Below, piece after piece: positions 1,421 through 19,738 of a DNA stretch of 20,000 bases. A model generated the notes under the pieces. It saw only the letters and a program-made list of their open reading frames with translations. It did not search any database and was not told where the DNA came from. The stretch spans positions 14,928,098 to 14,948,097 of the forward strand of contig NC_057751.1 of assembly GCF_004010195.1 (NCBI RefSeq), written 5' to 3'. The position numbers and the translations under genes are program-made. How positions within the stretch are numbered: the first letter of the stretch is position 1; every line of letters begins with the position of its first letter. The stretch comes from Chiloscyllium plagiosum (Eukaryota).

Positions 1421-1874
1421 TGAAGGTCAGTGTCCATTGGCATCCTGTGCCAATGTTCTCCCCATCTCCACACCTTGCATCCTTTACCAGTCTTGCTGTT
1501 TTGAGCATACAACAGATGCTGGGATTCAGGATCCAACTCTGGTCTGTTGTCACAACTGCAGCATCTACTCCATTTCTCGTGCATTAATTTTGATTGCCAT
1601 GAATATAGTGAAGGCCCAGGCCACAGGCTGCTGTCGTGTTGACCGCTGTGGTTCCTGCCATGTAACTCAGCTAGTTTGCCCTTTGACTTCCAGTAATCGT
1701 TCACTCTGCTTGACCATGGCTCATCCTCTCATCCAATTGGCTGATAAACATTCTCCCTCTATTTCCTGCCCTTATAACTACAAAAAAGAGAGTAAAAAAG
1801 TGGTCAAGATGTCCTGAAAGGCAGAGTAGCAGTGGATATATAAAGGTGCTGCTACTGGGAAATACAAAGTGTTC

Positions 1875-2032
1875 GAACATAGAACAGTATAGCACAATAA
1901 TGGCCCTTTGGCCCTCGATGTTGTACCGGCTTTTTATTCTACACGAAGATCAGACTAACATACATATTCTTCATTTTACTAACTTCCATGGACCTAGCCA
2001 AGAGTTGCTTAAATGCTCCTAATGTATCTGAC
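1875..2032 (-). mobile_element. CR1-type LINE 3' end
   Basis: GAACATAGAACAGTATAGCACA...GGCCCTTTGGCCCTCGATGTTGTACCGG is the reverse complement of a CR1 3' tail ending in TTCTATGTTC. Confidence 0.7.
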
Positions 2033-2416
2033 AATAGTTTCCCTTCCAAGATAATGTACATGATCTTTGTACATCTTCTTTGCATCTTCTCCAGCATCTC
2101 TGCATTCTTTTTAATTACAAAGTAAGGAATAGCAGGAGTAGGTAATGTGGTCTTTCTAAGCCACTCCAATATTCAGTAACAGCAAAGCCAATCTTCAACT
2201 TTTACTTTACTTTTTTATGTCATCCTTATCTTTTTTGATTCCCTTAAAGGCCAGAGATTGTTCACAATCATTGATCTCGGTTTTGATATACTAACAAAAA
2301 ATCCATAGGTGACTGTAATAGAGAATTCTGAAAAATCCATAACTCTCTGAATGAAGAAACATCTTTTCATCTCAGTCTTTTATAGCAGTTCCTGAAACTT
2401 GACACTAATTTCGCAA

Positions 2417-2528
2417 GGAGAAAGTGAGGAATGCAGATGCTGGAGACCTGAAGAAGGGCTTAAGCCCGAAACGTCGATTCTCCTGCTCCTCAGATGCTGC
2501 CTGGCCTGCTGTGTTTTTCCAGCAACCA
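2417..2528. mobile_element. Penelope-like element terminal-repeat remnant (tip of one arm fused to the opposite arm)
   Basis: GGAGAAAGTGAGGAATGCAGATGCTGGAGA is joined to CCTGAAGAAGGGCTTAAGCCCGAAACGTCGATTCTCCTGCTCCTCAGATGCTGCCTGGCCTGCTGTGTTTTTCCAGCA. The second part matches the reverse complement of 13883-13960. Confidence 0.75.
2439..2486 (+). ncRNA. Minimal type I hammerhead ribozyme motif (Penelope type)
   Basis: CUGAAGA 2448-2454, an extra A, stem II GGGC-UUAA-GCCC 2456-2467, GAAAC 2468-2472, GUC cleavage triplet 2473-2475. Possible stem I: GGAGAC 2442-2447 with G..UCUCC 2476-2483. Confidence 0.7.
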
Positions 2529-3949
2529 ATTTCTGCAACACAGAGACAGGGACACAGTAAATGTGGTTGAACTAAATTTCACTTAAGTACCCTGTATTTC
2601 AATTCTGCTCCTCTCAAAATCAGCCCCAAAATGCTGTTTCCATTTTTGGTGGCCCTTGTTCATCCAATTACTTAGTTTTCATATATTCAACCTTGTTACT
2701 CTGAAACATAATTCTGAAGAAGGACATTGAAAAAAAAATTGGATTATTACTTTTTTACATTGCGCTGGTGTCTGCAAATTGTCGAGTTTAATCTTGCCTG
2801 ATTTGTGATTGCAAATCCTTCATTACTATTAAATTTCTGTTTGCTAAATAATGTTCAGAGTCTTGAGTACTCAAAGAGTCAATATACACAACTACAGCCT
2901 CAGTTGTGGATGTGATGTGAGTTAGAGGAAAGACAGTAGCAGTATATTGTGTTACAAAAGTCAAAAAAAGCTTGCAAGGCTGAATAGCTGTTGAGGCTGA
3001 ATATAGAATCCATGCACAATTCGCAAAACACAAGGTGCAGCGGTATGACCATGGCTGCATCACTCTGGGAACAACCTGAGTGGAGACTTGATACAAGATG
3101 CAGAGATCCATAATTATTAATGGCCTGAGTTTCCTGAACAACGAACAGGATGGTTATTTACTTTCCAGCTCGTCAAACCCATTCTATAACATGTCATCAC
3201 TGCCTTGCCCACCAAGACCACAGAGCTGGTATTGAGGTCACAATCCTGACCATCCAAATGTGGTACATTTCACACCCACACTCAGTAGATGAGTCACCTG
3301 ACAGCAGAACTGTGTCAAAGAAAAATAGCCCAAAAGTTAATGCAGACAATGAAAGACTGAGAAGATATGTTTATGATTGAAGATACCAAACCTCTGTGAT
3401 CATCACTGAAGATACAAAGTCAAGGTTGGTAAGCGATTTGAATCAGTTTCTGACCATCCTTTTGCAATTCCTATAGGTTTGTTTCACTGTGATCTCTATT
3501 ATATGTTCTGCCAAGAACAATCTAATTTGAACTTGTGTCTGTCACCATTATCTTCATGACTAACAATAACAGTATCTTGTGTCTTTAAAATGCCAAACAA
3601 TGGGGCTGGTGTTCTGATGTCAGATTACTGCACCATGTTGGGGACAGCAATTGATGTAATCTACCTGGAGGAATGGATGATGTTGAATTACACAAAATGC
3701 TTTGCTTTTTATTGATCACTTTCATGAATAAGAAAATCAAGTTCAGGAAAATAAAAGTTGGTGGGTTTTCCAATGACACCTCTGAGTTTTTAATCTCCAT
3801 AAGTAATTCTCAGATAGCAAAAATCAAAGTTTTAGGGATTTTAGAAATCTTAGCAGGCGATCTGTGCAGAGTGATTTAATCGTGATGAAGAACAAATAAA
3901 TAGGAAAGGATATAGTAATCTTCATAATTATCTTCAATGTCGTCATCTC

Positions 3950-4510: not shown

Positions 4511-5487
4511 TTTTAGATTGTTTTGTCTGTATTGTCTGCCGCTGTTATCCTTCTATAATAATCTTACTCCTCTGTATATCCAGGATCAGACTGAGGGAGA
4601 AAGTGAGGGACAGCCAACTCACCCTCAGATCATTGTTTAGTACAGTTCTCGCATGATGTTCTTACTCAATCGACTTTTGTACTGACGTTGGTTAGCGATT
4701 GTTCATGATTCATTGATGGGTTACTAGTGTAATTTATCTCTGTACTGCAATGTTATTGCTATAGATTTAACTGTTGGAATCCATTTCCCTGCAGTGAGGA
4801 TGAACAAAGCCTCTGCTTCATGCGCATTCCTTAAGTTCCAGCCCTCACACATCATTGCTCAGAACCCCGTACTGCAAATACTTAGCTGGAATTTGTCTCA
4901 AGTTGTCACTTGAATTGCTCAACAGTGTTCTTTCAGTATGCGCAGAGGAAACAACTGTGACTGCATGCTTAGGTCCAGCATTACCAGGTTAACAGCTCCC
5001 GCTGAAATACAGACTATGCTAACTTAACTTGGAATGATTGCTGAGATGGGTGTGGAAGGCTGCTTAGATTGAGTGAGGGAGAGGTATGATCCTCAAGTTC
5101 TGGTCTCCACTGTTGCTGAGTCAGTTATTGTCTGATAGGCAGGAGTTTGGCCTTTGTGCCTTTTATTCCAGATAGGATAATCTAGGCTCCTGCTCCTAAT
5201 GGAGATCACAGCGATTTGGTGGCTGTACCTCATGCATACTCCCCTCACTCCAATAGTGTGCAGACAATATGGGCCCATACATGAAAAATGGACACAATGG
5301 TGGGCTATCAAAAGGTGGCTGGTGTCCCAGGGGCTCAGAACGTGAGGCACTGCGGACAGGACAGGAGGACAACCTGCAGGAGATAATGGCTCCTTGTGCC
5401 TGTATCTTAACTCACACCAAGTCCCATTTGCCCATCACAATACGTATTGTCTTTTTGATCGAATCATACACTTAACTTGGAGGCATG

Positions 5488-6292: not shown

Positions 6293-7092
6293 GTTTGATT
6301 TGATTTATTGTTGTCATATGAACTGAAATACAGTGAAAAGTGTTGTTTTGTGCGCTCTACAGGAAGATCGTACCATACAAAGTGCATCAGCCAGCAAACC
6401 AGAGTGTAGAAAATAGTATTACAGCTGGAGGAAAGATGTAGAGAGAGAGATTATGTGTTTGTGGGAGAGAAAGAGAGAGAGAGAGAGAGACAGAGAGATG
6501 GCAATATTAACATTCGAGATGTCTGTCCAAAAGTCTGATAACAGTGGGAAAGAAGCTGTTCTTGAATCCGTGTAAGTGTATTCAAACTTTTATATCTTCT
6601 GCCCAACAGAAGAGGATGGAAGAGAGTATAACTGGGGTGGGAGGGGTTTTTGATAATGTTGGTTGATTTCTTGCAGCAGTGGGAAGTGCAGCTGGAGTCA
6701 ATCGATGGAAGATTCGTTTGTCTGATGGATTGGGTTGTACTCACAACTCTCTGTAGTTTTTGGGGTCTTGGGAATAGCAGTTGCCATACTACCCTGTGAT
6801 GCATCCAGATAGAATGCTTTCTGTCCTGTACCTGTAAAAATCAGTAAGATGTTTTGTGGATATGCTGAATTTCCTTAGCATCCTGAGGAAGATGAGGCAT
6901 TGTTGTGCTTTCTTGGGTGTTGTGTTGATGTGGGTGGACCAGGACAGATTGTTAGTGATCATCATTCCCGTGATGCTCTGGACAATCTCCACCTTAGCAC
7001 CATTGACGCAGACAGGGGCATGCCAACCACTCTACTTCCTGAAGTCAAAAACCAGTTCCTTCATTTTGCTGAAGTTGATGAAGAGATCATTG
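6293..7092 (-). mobile_element. Rex1/Babar-clade LINE, 3' fragment
   Basis: ORF 6789-6992 ITNNLSWSTHINTTPKKAQQCLIFLRMLRKFSISTKHLTDFYRYRTESILSGCITG and ORF 6451-6804 KLQRVVSTTQSI...IIKNPSHPSYTLFHPLLLGRRYKSL match Rex1 RT C-terminal motifs. There is a TTTGA-repeat tail at 6294-6306. Confidence 0.88.
6465..6498. repeat. (GA)n microsatellite, imperfect
   Basis: GAGAGAAAGAGAGAGAGAGAGAGAGACAGAGAGA, seen directly, inside the Rex1 3' UTR. Confidence 0.9.
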
Positions 7093-8055: not shown

Positions 8056-8102
8056 ATCCTTGTTATGTTTAAGCCTGGGCTTGTTCTAGTTGGCGAACTG
8101 AG

Positions 8103-8447
8103 ATCATAGAATAGAATCCCTATAGTGTGGAAGCAGGCCCTTTGTCCTGTCCAGTCCACATCAACCCTCCGAAGAACATCCCACCCAGACCCACCCCCTT
8201 CTCTATCCCTGTATTTCTAATGGCTAATCCACCTGGGCTGCACATCCTTGGACATTATGGGCAATTTAGCATGGCCAATCCACCCAAACTGCATATCTGT
8301 AGTCTTTGGGAGGAAACCAGAGCACCCGGAAGATACCCACGCAGACATGGGGAGAATGTGCAAACTCCACAGAGCTTGTTGCCTGAGGGTGGAATCGAAC
8401 CAGATCTTGTGAGGCAGCAGTGCTAATCATTGAGCCACCATGCTGCC
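8103..8447 (-). mobile_element. HE1-type V-SINE, near full length
   Basis: The minus strand starts GGCAGCATGGTGGCTCAATGATTAGCACTGCTGCCTCACA, has B box GGTTCGATTCC, V-domain GGAGTTTGCACATTCTCCCCATGTCTGCGTGGGT...TCCTCCCA and a HER1-shared tail ending TTCTATTCTATGAT. Confidence 0.92.
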
Positions 8448-10564: not shown

Positions 10565-11516
10565 ATGTGCCCTCTCCGAATGCATGACAACTCCCTGACT
10601 CCACCCACAGCGTGTGACATCAGAAGATTAGGTGGAACCAAAGTAATATGAACATTAAGCCTTTCAGAACCATCACCAAATATGATAGATATCCTGGGCT
10701 GAATGGTCTCCTACTGTGCTATAACCATTCCATCATTTATCATCTCCAAGTCCAGATTATTGCCGTCTTCTGAAACAGTCTTTTTGTGCCTGTCTTGGCT
10801 CTTTACTGAGCCCTCAATGGCTCAGCTTTTAGCTGTCTTTGCCCTATGTTCTAAATTTCCTTTGCTGAACCTCTCCACCTCCCCCCTCCCCCATAACACC
10901 CTCCATTTAAGGTGTTTGATGTCATTTTCTAATTATATATGGATTCTGCTGCAATAGTGAAGGTGAATAAAGTGCAGCCTCAGATTCTTGGCATTTTTCT
11001 GCATTGACTAATGAAGTGGCACTTGCTGAGCTACAGGCACATGCTTTAAACAAAGGTGCAGCTCAGTCAATGTGTTGATCAATAACGAGTGAATGGTATC
11101 GAGGGAGGAACATCTGTTGTTGCGAAATACTCTCTGTTCACTGCCTGCTGGGTGTGGCTGGTTTCTGTGGTTTGCAGCTTGCCACACAGTACAAAACAGT
11201 GTGGTCAAGAAATACAGGGTGGGCAGATATCACTTGTCCAGCTGGAACATATGGTGTCACACTCGGTAAATGGTTTGAAATCCTGACCGACTCTTGCTCA
11301 TGATAAGATTTGGCAGGTGGTGGAGGTGCTGGGGGTTCATAATTCATTTGTTTTCTCGTTCTTCACATTTCCACAATGCCTTTTCCCACTTCAGGATGTC
11401 TCAAAGCTCTTTTCTAGTCAAGTTGTAATGTAGGAAATACGGTACCCATTTTGTGCACAGCAAGCCCTCACAAACAGCATTGAAATAAATGGTCAGATGT
11501 TCTTTGTTAGGTGGTT

Positions 11517-11802
11517 GGCAAGGTGGCACAGTGGTTAGCACTGCTGCCTCACAGTGCCAGAGACCTGGGTTCAATTCCTGTCTCAGGCAACTGTCTGTGT
11601 GGGTTTCCTCCGGGTGCTCCGGTTTCCTCCCACAGTCCAAAAATGTGCAGGTTAGGTGAATTGGCCATGCTAAATTGCCTGTAGTGTTAGGTGAAGGGGC
11701 AAATGTAGGGGAATGGGTCTGGGTGAGCTGCTCTTTGGAGGGTCGGTGTGGACTTGTTGGGCCGAAGGGCCCGTTTCCACACTGTAAGTAAGTTAATCTA
11801 AT
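11517..11802 (+). mobile_element. HE1-type V-SINE nested in the DeuSINE, with an internal deletion
   Basis: A box TGGCACAGTGG 11524-11534, B box GGTTCAATTCC 11568-11578, GGGTGCTCCGGTTTCCTCCCACAGTCCAAA core, tail TAATCTAAT. It lacks the GGAGTTTGCACATTCTCCCC segment present in the 8103-8447 copy. Confidence 0.92.
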
Positions 11803-11898
11803 ATCCTGTTCTTCTTCAAATATTATCCATTTTCACCCATTGAGCGGACAGATGGGATGTTTGATCCCAGTGTAATGTTTGATCCACAATTCAGTGCA

Positions 11899-12745
11899 TC
11901 CAATAGTGCAATCTTCCCTCAGTGCTGTCCCAGGAACAGTGCATTGTTCCATCAGTGCCGACCAGCAATAATGAGATGTTTCCTCAAAACTGACCATCCA
12001 GTTGTGCAACACTTTCTCAGGACTAACTTTCCAACACTGTAGCACTCCCTCAGTACTGTATCTGCAACAATGAAATGTTGCCTCGGTACTACTCCTCCAA
12101 CAGAGCAATACTTCCTCAATGCTATCCTTGCAACAATGCGATGCTCCCTCAGACTTCTACTTCAACAGTACAGCAATGCCTCAATGCCTCTCTTCGCACA
12201 GTTCAGTCCTCATGGTACGTTCCCTCAATCCTGCCCTCCGAAGATTGCAACACTCCCTCAAACCGTTCCTGCAACATTGCTCTTCCAATACTTTATTCTG
12301 AGAGTGCACCATTCCCAAAGTGCTGGTCAGGGATGAGGACAAAGGTATATCAGGGTCCAATAACTGGAACGTGGGGCTATTGGGGCCTGTTGAGCTTGGA
12401 TTGGGGCCAGGACTGTTGTGCTCAGCTTGTGGACAGGGCCACTTGGCTCATGCTGGTTTGGGGCCAAGGCTGGAGATCTGGGCCTTTAGCAGCACCAGGC
12501 CCCATGATTTCTGTTTCTGCACTTACAATGGTTGTGTGCTCCCTCAATGCTGCTCCTGTAACGGTGCAGCATTCATTGAGTACTGTCACTGCAGTAGAGC
12601 AGATCTCCCTTAATACTCCCTTCGACACTGTAGTGTTGGCTAGATACTGATCCTCCAAGTGTGTAACACTCTTAATATTACTCCTCCAACAGAGCAGCAA
12701 GCCCTCAAAACTGACCTTCTGACAGCAGTATTCTCTCAGTACTGT
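11899..12745. repeat. Degenerate minisatellite of about 32 bp (about 19 units), split by a GC-rich insert
   Basis: The recurring unit approximates CCTCCAACAGTGCAGCACTCCCTCAGTACTGA, e.g. CTTTCCAACACTGTAGCACTCCCTCAGTACTGT near 12027 and TCCTCCAACAGAGCAATACTTCCTCAATGCTAT near 12093. Confidence 0.85.
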
Positions 12746-13867
12746 TGGAATATCAGCCCAGTACCTCTGTTGTAGTTGCTGGAACTTGAATCTACAACCT
12801 TTTAGTTCAGCAGTTAGAAGGCTATCAACTGAGCCACACAGGGACAATGCTGCAGTCCTAAGATCTTGACAGTCAGTGGTCTCTCTCTGTCGCTTGGAAG
12901 GATAAATTTCCCTTTTCATTCTCCTTTGGCATGAAGTCTTTATTCTGCAGGATAAACTGCATACCCCTTTCTCTTGCACTCTTTCTACTGCAGCTTCTCT
13001 GAAAAGTCCTCTTTCTTCCTGCCACCTCATCCAGTTGTCTCAATTTTCTTGCAGCACTATCATCAATCACTACGCTCATTAACAGGTTACCGGAGATGGA
13101 GCGGAAGAAGCGGAGATGGTTGTATCATGAGTAGTCCTAGTAACTCACTGATTGGACATTTACATGTTAGTCATCATCAAAGTAGAGACAATGCTACAGC
13201 AATATTTCTTTGCTTAATATGGGCAGGAATGAGACTGGGGTTGTGGTCTGTTAAAGTGTGACTGTGTTGTGTACTCACACTGTCAACCACATCTTGCAGT
13301 GGTCTGGCTTTCTGTTCTGTCAGAAAATGTTACTAAATGAGGGCTGGGTATGGAACAATGAAAACCCCTGAGATATAAGGGGATCTCCATTCATTCAATC
13401 ACCTGAGATTAGAACTCAAACTCAGAGCTTTTGACTCAGGGACACTGGTTACCCACTGGTTCAATGAGTAAGCTACCTAATTCTGCTATAGGTAGAACTT
13501 ACTAATAACCATTACTTGATATATTTCTAACACCATTATAATTTGGCACATTACCTTTATGATTTCTCAATAAGTCAATGATCAACTTTGAATCTATTGG
13601 AAGTCACTTGCCAAATAGATTCGGTTTCTGTTCATCTCCTTCTCCTCCTTTTATTTCACCATGGACAAACTTGATTTCAGGAATTCTCTCCTGTTACATC
13701 TCTCTTTTCTCTTTTAAAAACCTGTTCTCAAGGCCTTAAGTTGTGGAATTCTCCCCCTTCGCATCTCTCTCCTCTCCCTTTAAAGCTAAATTTCACCTAA
13801 ATGCCATTGTTGGTATCCGTTTTTTTTAGCTTCTTTGAACATCACCTCAGCTATTAATGAACCACCG

Positions 13868-13964
13868 TCAAGATTAGAGTGGTGCTGGAAAAGTACAGCA
13901 GGTCAGGCAGCATCCGAGGAGCAGGAAAATCGATGTTTGGGCAGGAGCGCTTCATCAGGAATCC
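13868..13964 (-). mobile_element. Penelope-like terminal remnant with degenerate hammerhead
   Basis: The minus strand reads GGATTCCTGATGAAGCGCTCCTGCCCAAACATCGATTTTCCTGCTCCTCGGATGCTGCCTGACCTGCTGTACTTTTCCAGCA, the same family as 2447-2528. Confidence 0.75.
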
Positions 13965-14447: not shown

Positions 14448-14654
14448 TAGATTAGATTTCCTCCAGTGGAAACAGGCCCTTTGGCCTAACAAGTCCATGC
14501 TGACCCTCTGAAGGACAACCCACCCAGACCAATTCCCCTACTTTCCCCTGACTAATGCACCTAACACTATGGGGCAATTGAGCATGGCCAATTCACCTGA
14601 CCTGCACATCTTTGGATTGTGGGAGGAAACCAGAGTACCTGGAGGAAACCCACA
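14448..14654 (-). mobile_element. HE1-type V-SINE, 5'-truncated
   Basis: Reverse complement of 11600-11800 (TGTGGGAGGAAACCAGAGTACCTGGAGGAAACCCACA; TAGATTAGATT tail). Confidence 0.9.
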
Positions 14655-15151
14655 ATTGTGGTGACTTCAACTGTCAAACGGTAATGTTTTAGCCAGGTGG
14701 CGTACAGTGCAGGGAGGTACAACCGGACATTAAAGGCCAACCATGTTGAGCCTGGCCCTGTTTATACTTGGGAGATTGTGAGTCAGGGTTAACGAGCTCC
14801 TCAATCAATCTAGTAACTGAATAGATTTTGCAACAGTCAGGTATCTAAGCATTATTTCCTCCTGTAATAATAATGTTGGCCTGGTAGTTTGAAATTAGTA
14901 GGAGATACATGACAGGCCTCACACTGAACACATTTACAAACATTAAGAATCTACCTTAGGCCAAGCCTTTGCTGCCTGGAAATGGTTGGGTGAGCAGAAG
15001 AGTGTCGATTCAGATAATCCGGGTGAGTTTACCTCTTCTGAGTTAGTTTAAATACCAGTTAGATTGGGATTAAATCAGGTAACCCAGGTAACCAGAGCCA
15101 CAGCAGTAATTTCGCTCCTGCAGGGAGTTTGGTTGGCCTTCATTCGTTGGG

Positions 15152-15321
15152 ATCAAAAACAGAAATTACGGGGAAAAAAATCAGCGCCTCTGGCAGCATC
15201 TGTGGAGAGAAATTAGAGTTAACATTTCGGGTCCAGTGACCCTTCCTCGAATAATTCTCTGATTTCTCTCCACAAATGCAACCAGACCTGCTGAGTTTTT
15301 CCAGCAATTTTTGTTCTGATT
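15152..15321. mobile_element. Penelope-like inverted terminal pair forming a foldback, with degenerate hammerhead on the minus strand
   Basis: The left arm CTGGCAGCATCTGTGGAGAGAAATTAGAG pairs with the right arm CTCTGATTTCTCTCCACAAATGCAACCAG. The minus strand has TTCGAGGAAGGGTCACTGGACCCGAAATGTT. Confidence 0.7.
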
Positions 15322-16320: not shown

Positions 16321-16335
16321 CAGGCAGTCACAGTT

Positions 16336-16929
16336 TAGAGAATAGACAATAGGTGCAGGAGAAGGCCATTCTACCCTTCGAGTCAGCACCACCATTCATT
16401 ATGATCATGGCTGATCATCCTCAATCAGTATCTTATTCCTGCCTTATCCCCATAACCCTTTCAAGAAAAAGAAGGAAGCATTTGTCAGGTATACACAACA
16501 GAGATGGAGTGAATCCTTAGAGTATCAAGGATCCTTAAGAACTCTATCCAACTCTTTCTTGAAAGTATCCAGAGACTTGGCCTCCACAGCCTTCTGTGGG
16601 AGAGCATTCCACACACCCACCAGTCTCTGGGTGAAGATGTTTCTCCTCAACTCTGTTCTAAATGGCCTATCCCTTATTTTTAAACTGTGTCCTCTGGTTT
16701 GGCACTCACCCATCAGCGGAAACATGCTTCCTGCCTCCAGAGTGTCCAATCCATTAATAATCTTATACATCTCAATCAGATCCCCTCTCAGCCTTCTAAA
16801 CTCAAAGGTATACAAGCCCAGTCGCTCCAATCTTTCAACGTAAGATAGTCCCGCCATTCTGGGAATTGACCTCATGAACCTACGCTGCACTCCCTCAATA
16901 GCCAGAATGTCTTTCCTCAAATTTGGAGA
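16336..16929 (-). mobile_element. Relatively young CR1 LINE 3' fragment
   Basis: Uninterrupted frame SPNLRKDILAIEGVQRRFMRSIPRMAGLSYVERLERLGLYTFEFRRLRGDLIEMYKIING...FTQRLVGVWNALP...FKKELD, followed by the 3' tail. Confidence 0.93.
16461..16523 (+). repeat. 63-bp exact direct duplicate of 17413-17475
   Basis: TCAAGAAAAAGAAGGAAGCATTTGTCAGGTATACACAACAGAGATGGAGTGAATCCTTAGAGT is identical at both positions. Confidence 0.95.
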
Positions 16930-17274: not shown

Positions 17275-18478
17275 GTAAAGGGTCAGCTGGAAAATGGGAA
17301 GCCTTCAAAAATAAGGTAATGAAAGTATAGAAACAGTATGTTCCTGTTAGGGTGAAAGGCAAGGCTGGTAGGTATAGGGAATGCGGGAAGACAAGAAAAA
17401 TTGAAGTATTGGTCAAGAAAAAGAAGGAAGCATTTGTCAGGTATACACAACAGAGATGGAGTGAATCCTTAGAGTGTCAAAGCAATAGGAGTATACTTAA
17501 GCGGAAAATCAGGAAGGCAAAAAGGGTCACGATTTATCTTTGGCAAATAGGGTTAAGAGAATCCAAAGGGATTTTATAAATATGTGAAGGACAAAAGGGT
17601 AACTAGAGAGAGAATAGGGCCCCTCAAAGATCAGCTCGGCAGCCTGTGTGTGGAACCACAGAAGATTGGGGAGATACTGAATGAGTGTTTTGCATCAGTG
17701 TTGACTGTGGAAAAAGACATGGTAGATATAGAATGTAGGGAAATAGATGGTGACATCTTGAAAAGTAAAGATGCTGGTTGTCTTAAAGTGCATAAGGGTG
17801 GATAAATTCCCAGGACCTGATCAGGTGTACCCTCGAATCTTGTGGTAAGCCAGGGAAGTGTTTGCTGGGCTTATTGCTGAGATATTTGTATCATCAATAG
17901 TCACAGGTGAGGTGTGGGAAGACTGGAAGTTGGCTAATGTCGTGCCACTATTTCAGAAAGTTAGCAAGGAAAAGCCAGGGAACTATAGACCGGTGAGCCT
18001 GACATCGGTGGTTGGCAAATTGATGGAGGGAATCCTGAGGAACAGGATTTACATATATTTGGAAAGGCAAGGACTGATAAGGAATAGTCAACATGGCTTT
18101 GTGTGTGGGAAATCATGTCTCACTAATTTGATTGTTACTTCTTCAGTCCTCTTTGTGTTTTATTTCATGAGGGCTGAGCGGTGGATGTGATCTCTATGGA
18201 CTTCAGTAAGACATTTGACAAGGTTCCTCATGGCAGACTGGTTAGCAAGGTTAGATCTCATGGGATACAGGGAGAATTATCAGTTTAGATACAGAACTGG
18301 CTTGAAGGTAGAAGGTGGTGGTGTGGAGTTGCAAAGGTGGTGGTATATGAATAGGAAAGGTTTGGAGGGATATGGGCCAGGTGCTGGCAAACGGGACTAG
18401 ATTAATTTAGGATATCTGGTTGGCATGGACGAGTTGGACAGAAGGGTCTATTTCCATGCTGTATATCTCTATGATTCA
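17275..18478 (+). mobile_element. HER1/CR1 LINE fragment with large internal deletion
   Basis: ORFs carry NPKGFYKYVKDKRVTRERIGPLKD, PGPDQVYPRIL and WKLANVVPLFQKVSKEKPGNYRPVSLTSVVGKLMEGILRNRIY...SQHGF. The sequence jumps near 18320 from mid-RT to the 3' tail ending CTCTATGATTC. Confidence 0.92.
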
Positions 18479-18479
18479 G

Positions 18480-18745
18480 TGACCACATGGCCATATTTAA
18501 AGTAACGAACAAGAGAACATAATAAAAAATCTTTTTGCAATAACTGTTTAGGGTTTGAAATGGACAGTCTTAGGGTCTGGTATAAACAGAATCGATAGTT
18601 TTCTTCATAAGAGAATGAGATAGTTACTTGGACAAAATATTTGAGGACTATTGTTAAGGAACGGGGAATAGGAGTAACTGGATTTTCAAAAGAGCTGGCA
18701 CAAACTTGAGCTGAATGGCTGTGCTACACTCTTCAGTGATTCAAT
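18480..18745 (+). mobile_element. Old CR1 3' end
   Basis: A decayed FF.Q.V...WN region and the tail TTCAAAAGAGCTGGCACAAAC...GCTGAATGGC..GTGCT...TGATTCAATGA. Confidence 0.55.
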
Positions 18746-19249: not shown

Positions 19250-19738
19250 AGGGGAGCTGACGGCCTAATGGTATTATTGATAGATTATTAATTCAGAGAC
19301 ACAGACAATGTTTTCAAAACTTGGATTTGAATCCCACCAAGGTAGATGGTGGAATTTGCATTCAATAAAACTTTGGAATTAGAAGTCTAATGATGACTGT
19401 GAAAGCATTGTTAATTGTCTGAAAGATCCCATCTGGTTCACTAATGTCCTTGAGGGAGGGAAACTGCCATCTTGTGCGGGTTTGCTCCGGTTTCCTCCCA
19501 CAGTCCAAAGATATGTAGGTTAGTTGGATTAGCCATGCTAATTTGCCCATCGTGTTAGGTGCATTAGTCAGACAGAAATGGGTATGGGTGAGGTTACTCT
19601 TTGGAGGGTCGGTGTGAACTTGTTGGCCGAAGGGCCTATTTCCACACTGTAAGTAATCTCATCTAATTGCTGTCTTTACCTGGTCTGAACTAAATGTGAC
19701 TCCAGACCCACAGCAATGCGATTGACTCTTAACTGACC
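19250..19738 (+). mobile_element. tRNA-derived SINE (MetaSINE-like core, tentative), split by an HE1 insertion
   Basis: Head GGCCTAATGGTA...GGATTTGAATCCC. The core CTGGTTCACTAATGTCCTTGAGGGAGGGAAACTGCC resumes after the insert as TACCTGGTCTGAACTAAATGTGACTCCAGACCCACAGC. Confidence 0.75.
19474..19667 (+). mobile_element. HE1-type V-SINE, 5'-truncated, nested
   Basis: TGCTCCGGTTTCCTCCCACAGTCCAAAGAT...TTTCCACACTGTAAGTAATCTCATCTAAT matches 11615-11802. Confidence 0.9.

Follow-up and report, generated by a model that had tools for sequence, protein, structure and literature searches.

A minimal hammerhead core of the Penelope-like kind in a 108-bp, 5'-inverted terminal-repeat insertion that is most likely inert

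Hammerheads of Penelope-like elements and the core at 2448-2475

Minimal hammerhead ribozymes have been described in Penelope-like elements (PLEs), where they lie in the pseudo-LTRs, mostly as solo motifs from truncated elements, and number thousands per genome (Cervera and De la Pena 2014, PMC4209133). In the accessible parts of that source, the Fig. S3 alignment gives the metazoan consensus CUGANGAH-G...C-GAAAN-NUH, its helix I rows have, as printed, 2-6 contiguous bp beside the core, and a second copy, lying at the 5' end on the opposite strand, is described in the Fig. S4 legend. Cleavage was absent for a single S. mansoni motif and weak for dimers, and in D. virilis the 5' end of helix I coincides with the end of an intron. 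The alignment has no shark row, and one supplement file mentions neither shark nor skate.

In the Poseidon element PAc of Anolis carolinensis, the hammerhead lies near the end of the terminal repeat, and two RT start sites flank an optional tail of 30-40 bp (Frangieh et al. 2024, PMC11167929, accessible part). At AT-rich sites that carry an ATT motif, the PAc enzyme cleaves both strands of the target and extends them. In the same source, the Anolis motif cut only when the element protein was present, insertion did not depend on the motif, and no RNA-seq ends came from it. Non-LTR retrozymes were reported in the one chondrichthyan genome sampled (bioRxiv 10.64898/2026.07.22.740005, accessible part). 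In a literature search that was thin on subscription papers, we found no published description of the particular family presented here.

We analysed a window of 20,000 nt (the whole stretch of DNA under study; all positions refer to it). A first reading, made from the sequence only, had listed all the elements of a hammerhead core in order, and we located each of them in its place. Stem II carries a predicted pairing probability, and the other rows were read directly from the letters:

2439-2447, plus strand: GCUGGAGAC, directly 5' of the core
2448-2454, plus strand: CUGAAGA, the CUGANGA box (C3 to A9), which matches the consensus CUGANGAH
2455, plus strand: the extra A, a nucleotide that is unpaired and sits between 9 and 10.1
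2456-2467, plus strand: stem II, GGGC-UUAA-GCCC, with 4 bp and a UUAA loop, closed by G10.1-C11.1 (G2456-C2467, P=0.99-1.0 in the folding model)
2468-2472, plus strand: GAAAC, the GAAA box
2471-2474, plus strand: the ACGU palindrome, a loop-less stem III
2473-2475, plus strand: the GUC triplet, with the predicted cut 3' of 2475
2476-2486, plus strand: GAUUCUCCUGC, directly 3' of the predicted cut site

The stretch 2448-2475 agrees with the published PLE minimal hammerhead consensus at all core positions, the extra A included, and the CUGANGA and GAAA boxes and the UH cleavage site stand in type I order. Judged by its motif features, the core is really present and of the PLE minimal hammerhead kind. 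This bears out the proposed minimal type I hammerhead, whose stem III is vestigial and palindromic. In the accessible part of PMC6155905, G12 and G8 are the base and the acid for cleavage 3' of C17. In the core described here, C17 is position 2475, the predicted scissile position.

A descriptor search had also been proposed. Using a descriptor of core, stem II and zero-loop stem III on both strands of the 20 kb window, we obtained a single match. In 2000 dinucleotide shuffles, the same descriptor, which did not require stem I, gave a mean of 0.0265 matches per window, and this expectation fell to 0.0125 with a stem of at least 4 bp. Since only ~0.027 matches are expected per shuffled window, the hammerhead motif is not a product of chance. 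Rfam was searched with the whole window and with 2380-2560 at E values up to 10, and no hammerhead family was among the 7 and 3 matches, as expected for a motif that has no helix III. An Rfam match to SNORD123 (18.8 bits, against a gathering value of 45) was rejected as chance.

The insertion and its repeat family

Three DNA runs (organisms A, B, and C) and one RNA run were aligned to 1850-3049 at 85% likeness. The DNA runs matched with 49,320 of 23.6 million, 43,507 of 22.5 million, and 23,649 of 35.4 million contigs, and 26,568 of the 49,320 matched contigs of run X1 were 90-95% alike. Summed depth, which like the counts of matched contigs is not a copy number, was 0.9-8.1 million in the three element bins (2410-2529) vs. 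7-22 in the right flank (2570-3049). The family carrying 2417-2524 is plainly very abundant. The RNA run (X22) gave 0 of 8,328,510 reads even on the high-copy repeat, and it is uninformative on expression.

The motif lies in an insertion with two arms between decayed direct repeats:

2404-2416, plus strand: 13-nt left copy of a target-site duplication, now decayed (identical to 2525-2538 in 12 of 14 aligned columns)
2417-2446, minus strand: inverted 30-bp distal end ('tail') of the element, from opposite-strand contig joints
2447-2524, plus strand: sense arm with the hammerhead core and downstream terminal-repeat sequence, without the last ~50 nt, from loose-end pile-ups and paralog identity
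2525-2538, plus strand: 14-nt right copy of the same decayed duplication, the counterpart of 2404-2416

The insertion consists of the inverted 30-bp tail and a sense arm of 78 bp. It had been proposed as a 110-bp remnant; a remnant it is, with a length of 108 bp (2417-2524) by the bounds of the direct repeat. The length of the ~50 nt missing from the sense arm was taken from consensus rows of low agreement. Random flank pairs equalled the direct-repeat score in 1 of 5000 draws from the window and 3 of 5000 local draws. As the decayed direct repeat stands at both outer ends, 2417-2524 is one insertion that duplicated its AT-rich target, and AATTT lies inside the duplicated target.

Contigs connect 2446 to 2516-2524 on opposite strands in the three DNA runs (6, 9, and 11 contigs). 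Thus, 2417-2446 is the far end of the element in inverted orientation, which supports the fusion of two terminal arms suggested by the sequence-only reading. Loose ends accumulate before 2447 (836, 765, and 513 contigs in the three DNA runs) and behind 2524 (642, 706, and 568 contigs).

We regard it as extremely improbable that the motif is a chance one or that the assembly made a chimera at 2446/2447. The lack of an Rfam hammerhead match would fit with such an origin, and so would the coverage of the junction: among the pieces listed (118,301 more are unlisted), no contig crosses 2446/2447 or spans the core, so the junction is read from the window assembly alone. However, the expectation in shuffled windows is far below one, the core is common to the whole repeat family, and the direct repeat at the outer ends places both arms in one insertion. 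Moreover, other family contigs present the tail and then the core, with letters between them (1, 2, and 2 contigs in the three DNA runs).

From 2498, one contig of organism C extends across the right flank and differs at 38 of 552 letters (~7% flank divergence). On the element side it has 27 letters, under the 31-letter bridging rule, and it ends short of the core. One contig of organism B stops at 2528. The organism C contig suggests that the insertion is shared and old, and it may predate the species split.

This possible age is one of the points that would speak for a domesticated ribozyme, with a host that selects the core and uses it to cut a host transcript. The other is the core itself, which is intact and keeps all three of its CpGs (2467, 2472, and 2475) in a window with a CpG o/e of 0.25, while the two other copies in the window are decayed. 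We find domestication hardly credible. Similar contigs number tens of thousands and are mostly 90-95% alike, so neutral lag would leave many cores of 28 nt intact, and the contig of organism C does not reach the core. Pfam, run on 22 of the 45 open frames of at least 80 aa, revealed no host gene family, no GIY-YIG, and nothing within 4 kb of 2439-2486; its matches were RVT_1 at 17849-18190 (24.6 bits, below the cut-off), ALKBH8_N at 6789-7031 (35.3 bits) and, weakly, APH, all more than 4 kb from 2439-2486, and short exons may escape such a screen. Known domesticated hammerheads have a canonical helix III and loop-loop partners, and neither is present at 2439-2486. Selection deduced from CpG retention was rejected: three core CpGs are kept and one outside the core differs from the paralog, which are too few. 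CpG retention together with the possible age leaves a little room for selection.

Two other copies lie in the window, with decayed cores on the strand opposite to that of 2448-2475:

~13867-13964, minus strand: same-family copy, with 66 of 77 aligned letters (13883-13959) identical to 2447-2524
~15160-15315, arms on both strands: back-to-back copy of a second subfamily, with 44-nt arms that are 82% complementary

The same-family copy has lost G12 and has an altered G16.2. It extends ~16 nt beyond the point equivalent to 2524 and seems to end before the tail. In the back-to-back copy, the minus-strand arm presents a core damaged in the CUGA box and a stem II of 5 bp; its plus-strand arm starts ~2 nt past the predicted cut site, like a copy of a self-cleaved RNA, and this is a single case. 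The descriptor found no second intact core on either strand of the 20 kb, and none of the best 20 of 54 direct-repeat families covers 2417-2524.

In all three DNA runs, family loose ends at 2447 share only ~7 letters upstream of the core, which suggests that for most family copies the start lies immediately 5' of CUGA and not at the cut site. The best 18 of 868 loose-end rows include none at 2476, which weakly indicates that the family is not dominated by cut templates. Family joints lead from 2478, 2485, 2489, and 2522 back to 2447, and some genomic copies repeat the core head to tail with short spacing. Such short-spaced tandem copies are better candidates for cleavage as dimers than the solo copy at 2417-2524.

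Going by its repeats, the window resembles DNA of a cartilaginous fish, and it is rich in SINE and LINE fragments. LINE fragments and copies of one SINE-like repeat lie at 1-840, 8100-8445, 11515-11805, 14460-14655, 16330-16925, 17330-18480, and 19480-19670, and a degenerate array of ~33-nt units (10 copies, 60-77% identity) lies at 11890-12745. The left flank holds further repeats at 1875-2030 (high depth, 10,000-34,000 in X1 and X9) and at 2330-2409 (moderate depth, 270-530). By eye, the tail has short matches at approximately 2090-2101 (12 nt, inverted) and 4597-4609 (13 nt, direct), possibly by chance.

Pairing and folding of the fused arms

The fusion placed a new strand directly before the core and, with it, a helix that the folding models form with high probability:

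2439-2486, plus strand: adventitious helix of 2442-2446/2479-2483 plus 2439-2440/2485-2486, created by the fusion (5-bp helix, P=0.95-1.0)

The loose ends before 2447 end in the same seven letters in the three DNA runs; therefore, the 5' strand of the family is known, and a paralog in the window shows the same start of stem I. In register, and as read from consensus rows with 0.36-0.37 overall agreement, the family strand gives two contiguous pairs beside the core, a U.U, and one more pair. The copy at 2417-2524 can take two forms. In one, a single pair is followed by an A.A mismatch and then by four pairs, of which two are G-U; in the other, a 2-nt bulge follows the single pair, and after it come five pairs, a mismatch, and two pairs. 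The fused strand has 8 possible pairs vs. 3 for the family strand, and a duplex energy of -11.0 vs. -0.3 kcal/mol. The suggestion that the fusion may yield a longer stem I was thus right for the total pairing but not for the part that adjoins the core: the second core-proximal pair is lost, and one pair with a bulge or mismatch is left.

Pairing as good as that of the fused strand was found for 156 of 5000 random 15-mers of the window. Each of the 17 other break points in the inverted tail likewise gives pairing (-6.2 to -11.7 kcal/mol), because the tail is purine-rich and the downstream stretch is pyrimidine-rich. The copy at 15175-15300 displays the same effect of complementary arms, over 44 nt. 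The extra pairing is a by-product of composition. Since inverted PLE insertions routinely place complementary sequence before the core, with 15175-15300 as a second case, an 'extended stem I' alone should not be taken for a gain of function.

At the level of folding, the 5-bp helix (2442-2446/2479-2483) reached its P of 0.95-1.0 in four contexts, from 48 to 801 nt, and the core-closing pair 2447-2476 had P=0.003 with the tail in the four contexts. With the tail, U4, G5, and A6 pair with G1.1, C17, and U16.1 in a fold that traps the core (0.83-0.98); without the tail, this trap drops to 0.10-0.16 for 2447-2524 and 0.35-0.57 for 2447-2486. The probability of a free core with stem II formed was 0.013 with the tail vs. 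0.048-0.17 without it. For two molecules, the double hammerhead was predicted at -25.5, two monomers at -33.8, and the best dimer at -46.2 kcal/mol, which leaves the double hammerhead 8.3 kcal/mol above two monomers and 20.7 above the dimer via the palindromic stem II.

In this copy, stem II and its loop (2456-2467) are a perfect 12-nt palindrome, which favours a non-catalytic duplex of two molecules; loose-end rows of the family have TTAT or similar in the loop.

Nearest-neighbour folding ignores Mg2+ and tertiary contacts, is known to mispair hammerhead cores, and was used here with no active-hammerhead control. Thus, the models rank forms and do not prove inactivity. In these models, the new helix clamps the core-trapping fold and looks more likely to jam the core than to improve it. 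The sequence-only reading had named folding that sequesters the core as a result that would speak against it. Such folding is what the models predict with the tail, although they only rank forms, and the trap also appears without the tail, at 0.10-0.57.

These results bear on the idea that the fusion made a longer working stem I, which would let the copy, in dimeric form or in trans with a family transcript, outperform its parent in cleavage. We consider this idea quite unlikely. In its favour are the gain in pairs and in duplex energy, which few random 15-mers equal, the possible in-register form with four pairs behind the mismatch, and a fold of the 48-mer better than that of 196 of 200 shuffles (z-score -2.26, with 4 of 200 as good). 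However, the pair adjoining the closing pair is lost and the closing pair itself hardly ever forms in the models, and disruption of the closing pair is the mutant control of Cervera and De la Pena according to the Fig. S6 legend (PMC4209133, accessible part). In addition, the helix raises the core-trapping fold, the double hammerhead is costlier than both two monomers and the palindromic dimer, and the 20 kb hold no second intact core to act as partner.

Origin of the insertion and comparison with known systems

We consider it highly probable that 2417-2524 is a solitary, 5'-truncated, 5'-inverted terminal-repeat insertion of a very high-copy Penelope-like family, with an inherited core that has not yet decayed and is most likely inert. 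The 'Penelope' label is taken from motif and layout, because no PLE reading frame was seen attached to the family; pattern scans of viral and metagenome contig collections gave 0 loci.

To make this insertion, the PLE enzyme would have nicked both target strands ~13-14 nt apart. Copying of the RNA would have started twice, at the tail and at a point slightly short of it, and head-to-head joining of the two copies would have given the inverted tail and the sense arm. A later internal deletion within a longer inverted pair gives the same picture and is about as possible. We discarded a ribozyme-cut template as the source of this copy, because the arm of the copy contains the core and crosses the cut site.

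The loop-less stem III means that the motif needs a second copy. In the parent, cleavage would require a double hammerhead, formed by pairing of two ACGU palindromes, and probably also the assistance of the element's protein. With no intact partner nearby and one core-closing pair only, 2417-2524 is therefore most likely inert. The extra helix would be an accident, with a purine-rich inverted tail placed before a pyrimidine-rich downstream stretch.

A different outcome, which we hold to be very unlikely, is that of an old insertion whose core was kept and whose host transcript pairs in trans with family transcripts, via the ACGU palindrome and the 5-bp helix, as a conditional cut site triggered by the repeat. 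If true, dead PLE fragments could become working ribozymes by accident, and every inverted copy in the genome would have this route available. Cellular cleavage by a copy of this type, if shown, would matter for the in vivo role of PLE hammerheads.

Under the preferred reading, that of an undecayed and most likely inert insertion, 2417-2524 is probably an ordinary relic, one of very many, of the class described in 2014. Its anatomy is intact (duplicated target, inverted tail, and tail-less arm), and this compact case from a genome agrees with the priming from two start sites and on both strands observed in vitro for the lizard PLE.

When compared to the PLE minimal hammerheads in the accessible parts of PMC4209133, 2448-2475 shares CUGANGAH, the G10.1-C11.1 pair, GAAA, a palindromic 15.2/16.2 without loop 3, and UH. 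The extra A, G10.1-C11.1, and the palindrome are three of the four typical features, and the C-G-U-C columns are as in the fugu, Xenopus, and Acropora rows of Fig. S3. It also belongs to a large family within its genome (23,649-49,320 contigs per DNA run and two more copies in the window). The difference lies in helix I, which in those rows is contiguous over 2-6 bp and here has one pair with a bulge or mismatch, followed by a foreign helix. Helix I of the family strand (two pairs, U.U, and one pair, from rows with 0.36-0.37 agreement) is at the low end of the same range.

With canonical type I hammerheads (Rfam; S. mansoni Sm-alpha type), the motif shares the catalytic boxes and the topology. 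Unlike them, 2439-2486 lacks a 6-bp helix I, a helix III loop, and recognisable tertiary contacts, and it has no Rfam hammerhead match at E up to 10. Its identity as a canonical type I hammerhead, which would have full helices I and III, was discarded. Animal non-LTR retrozymes are also non-coding, derived from PLEs, and endowed with a type I hammerhead (bioRxiv 10.64898/2026.07.22.740005, accessible part). They are tandem, with at least two complete units, whereas 2417-2524 is single and inverted-fused; one core in 20 kb rules out a tandem retrozyme.

Regarding the layout, the insertion resembles the PLE insertions of Craig et al. 2021, with an inverted copy at the 5' end and a tail of 30-40 bp at one end only, as given in the accessible part of PMC8557442. 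It differs from them in its extreme truncation, to 108 bp in total, and in an inverted part that is the tail alone. Finally, PAc is autonomous and tandem, unlike 2417-2524, which has no reading frame (PMC11167929, accessible part). Nevertheless, the PAc scheme fits 2417-2524 in its inverted 30-bp tail at one end, its tail-less arm at the other end, and the AATTT in its target.
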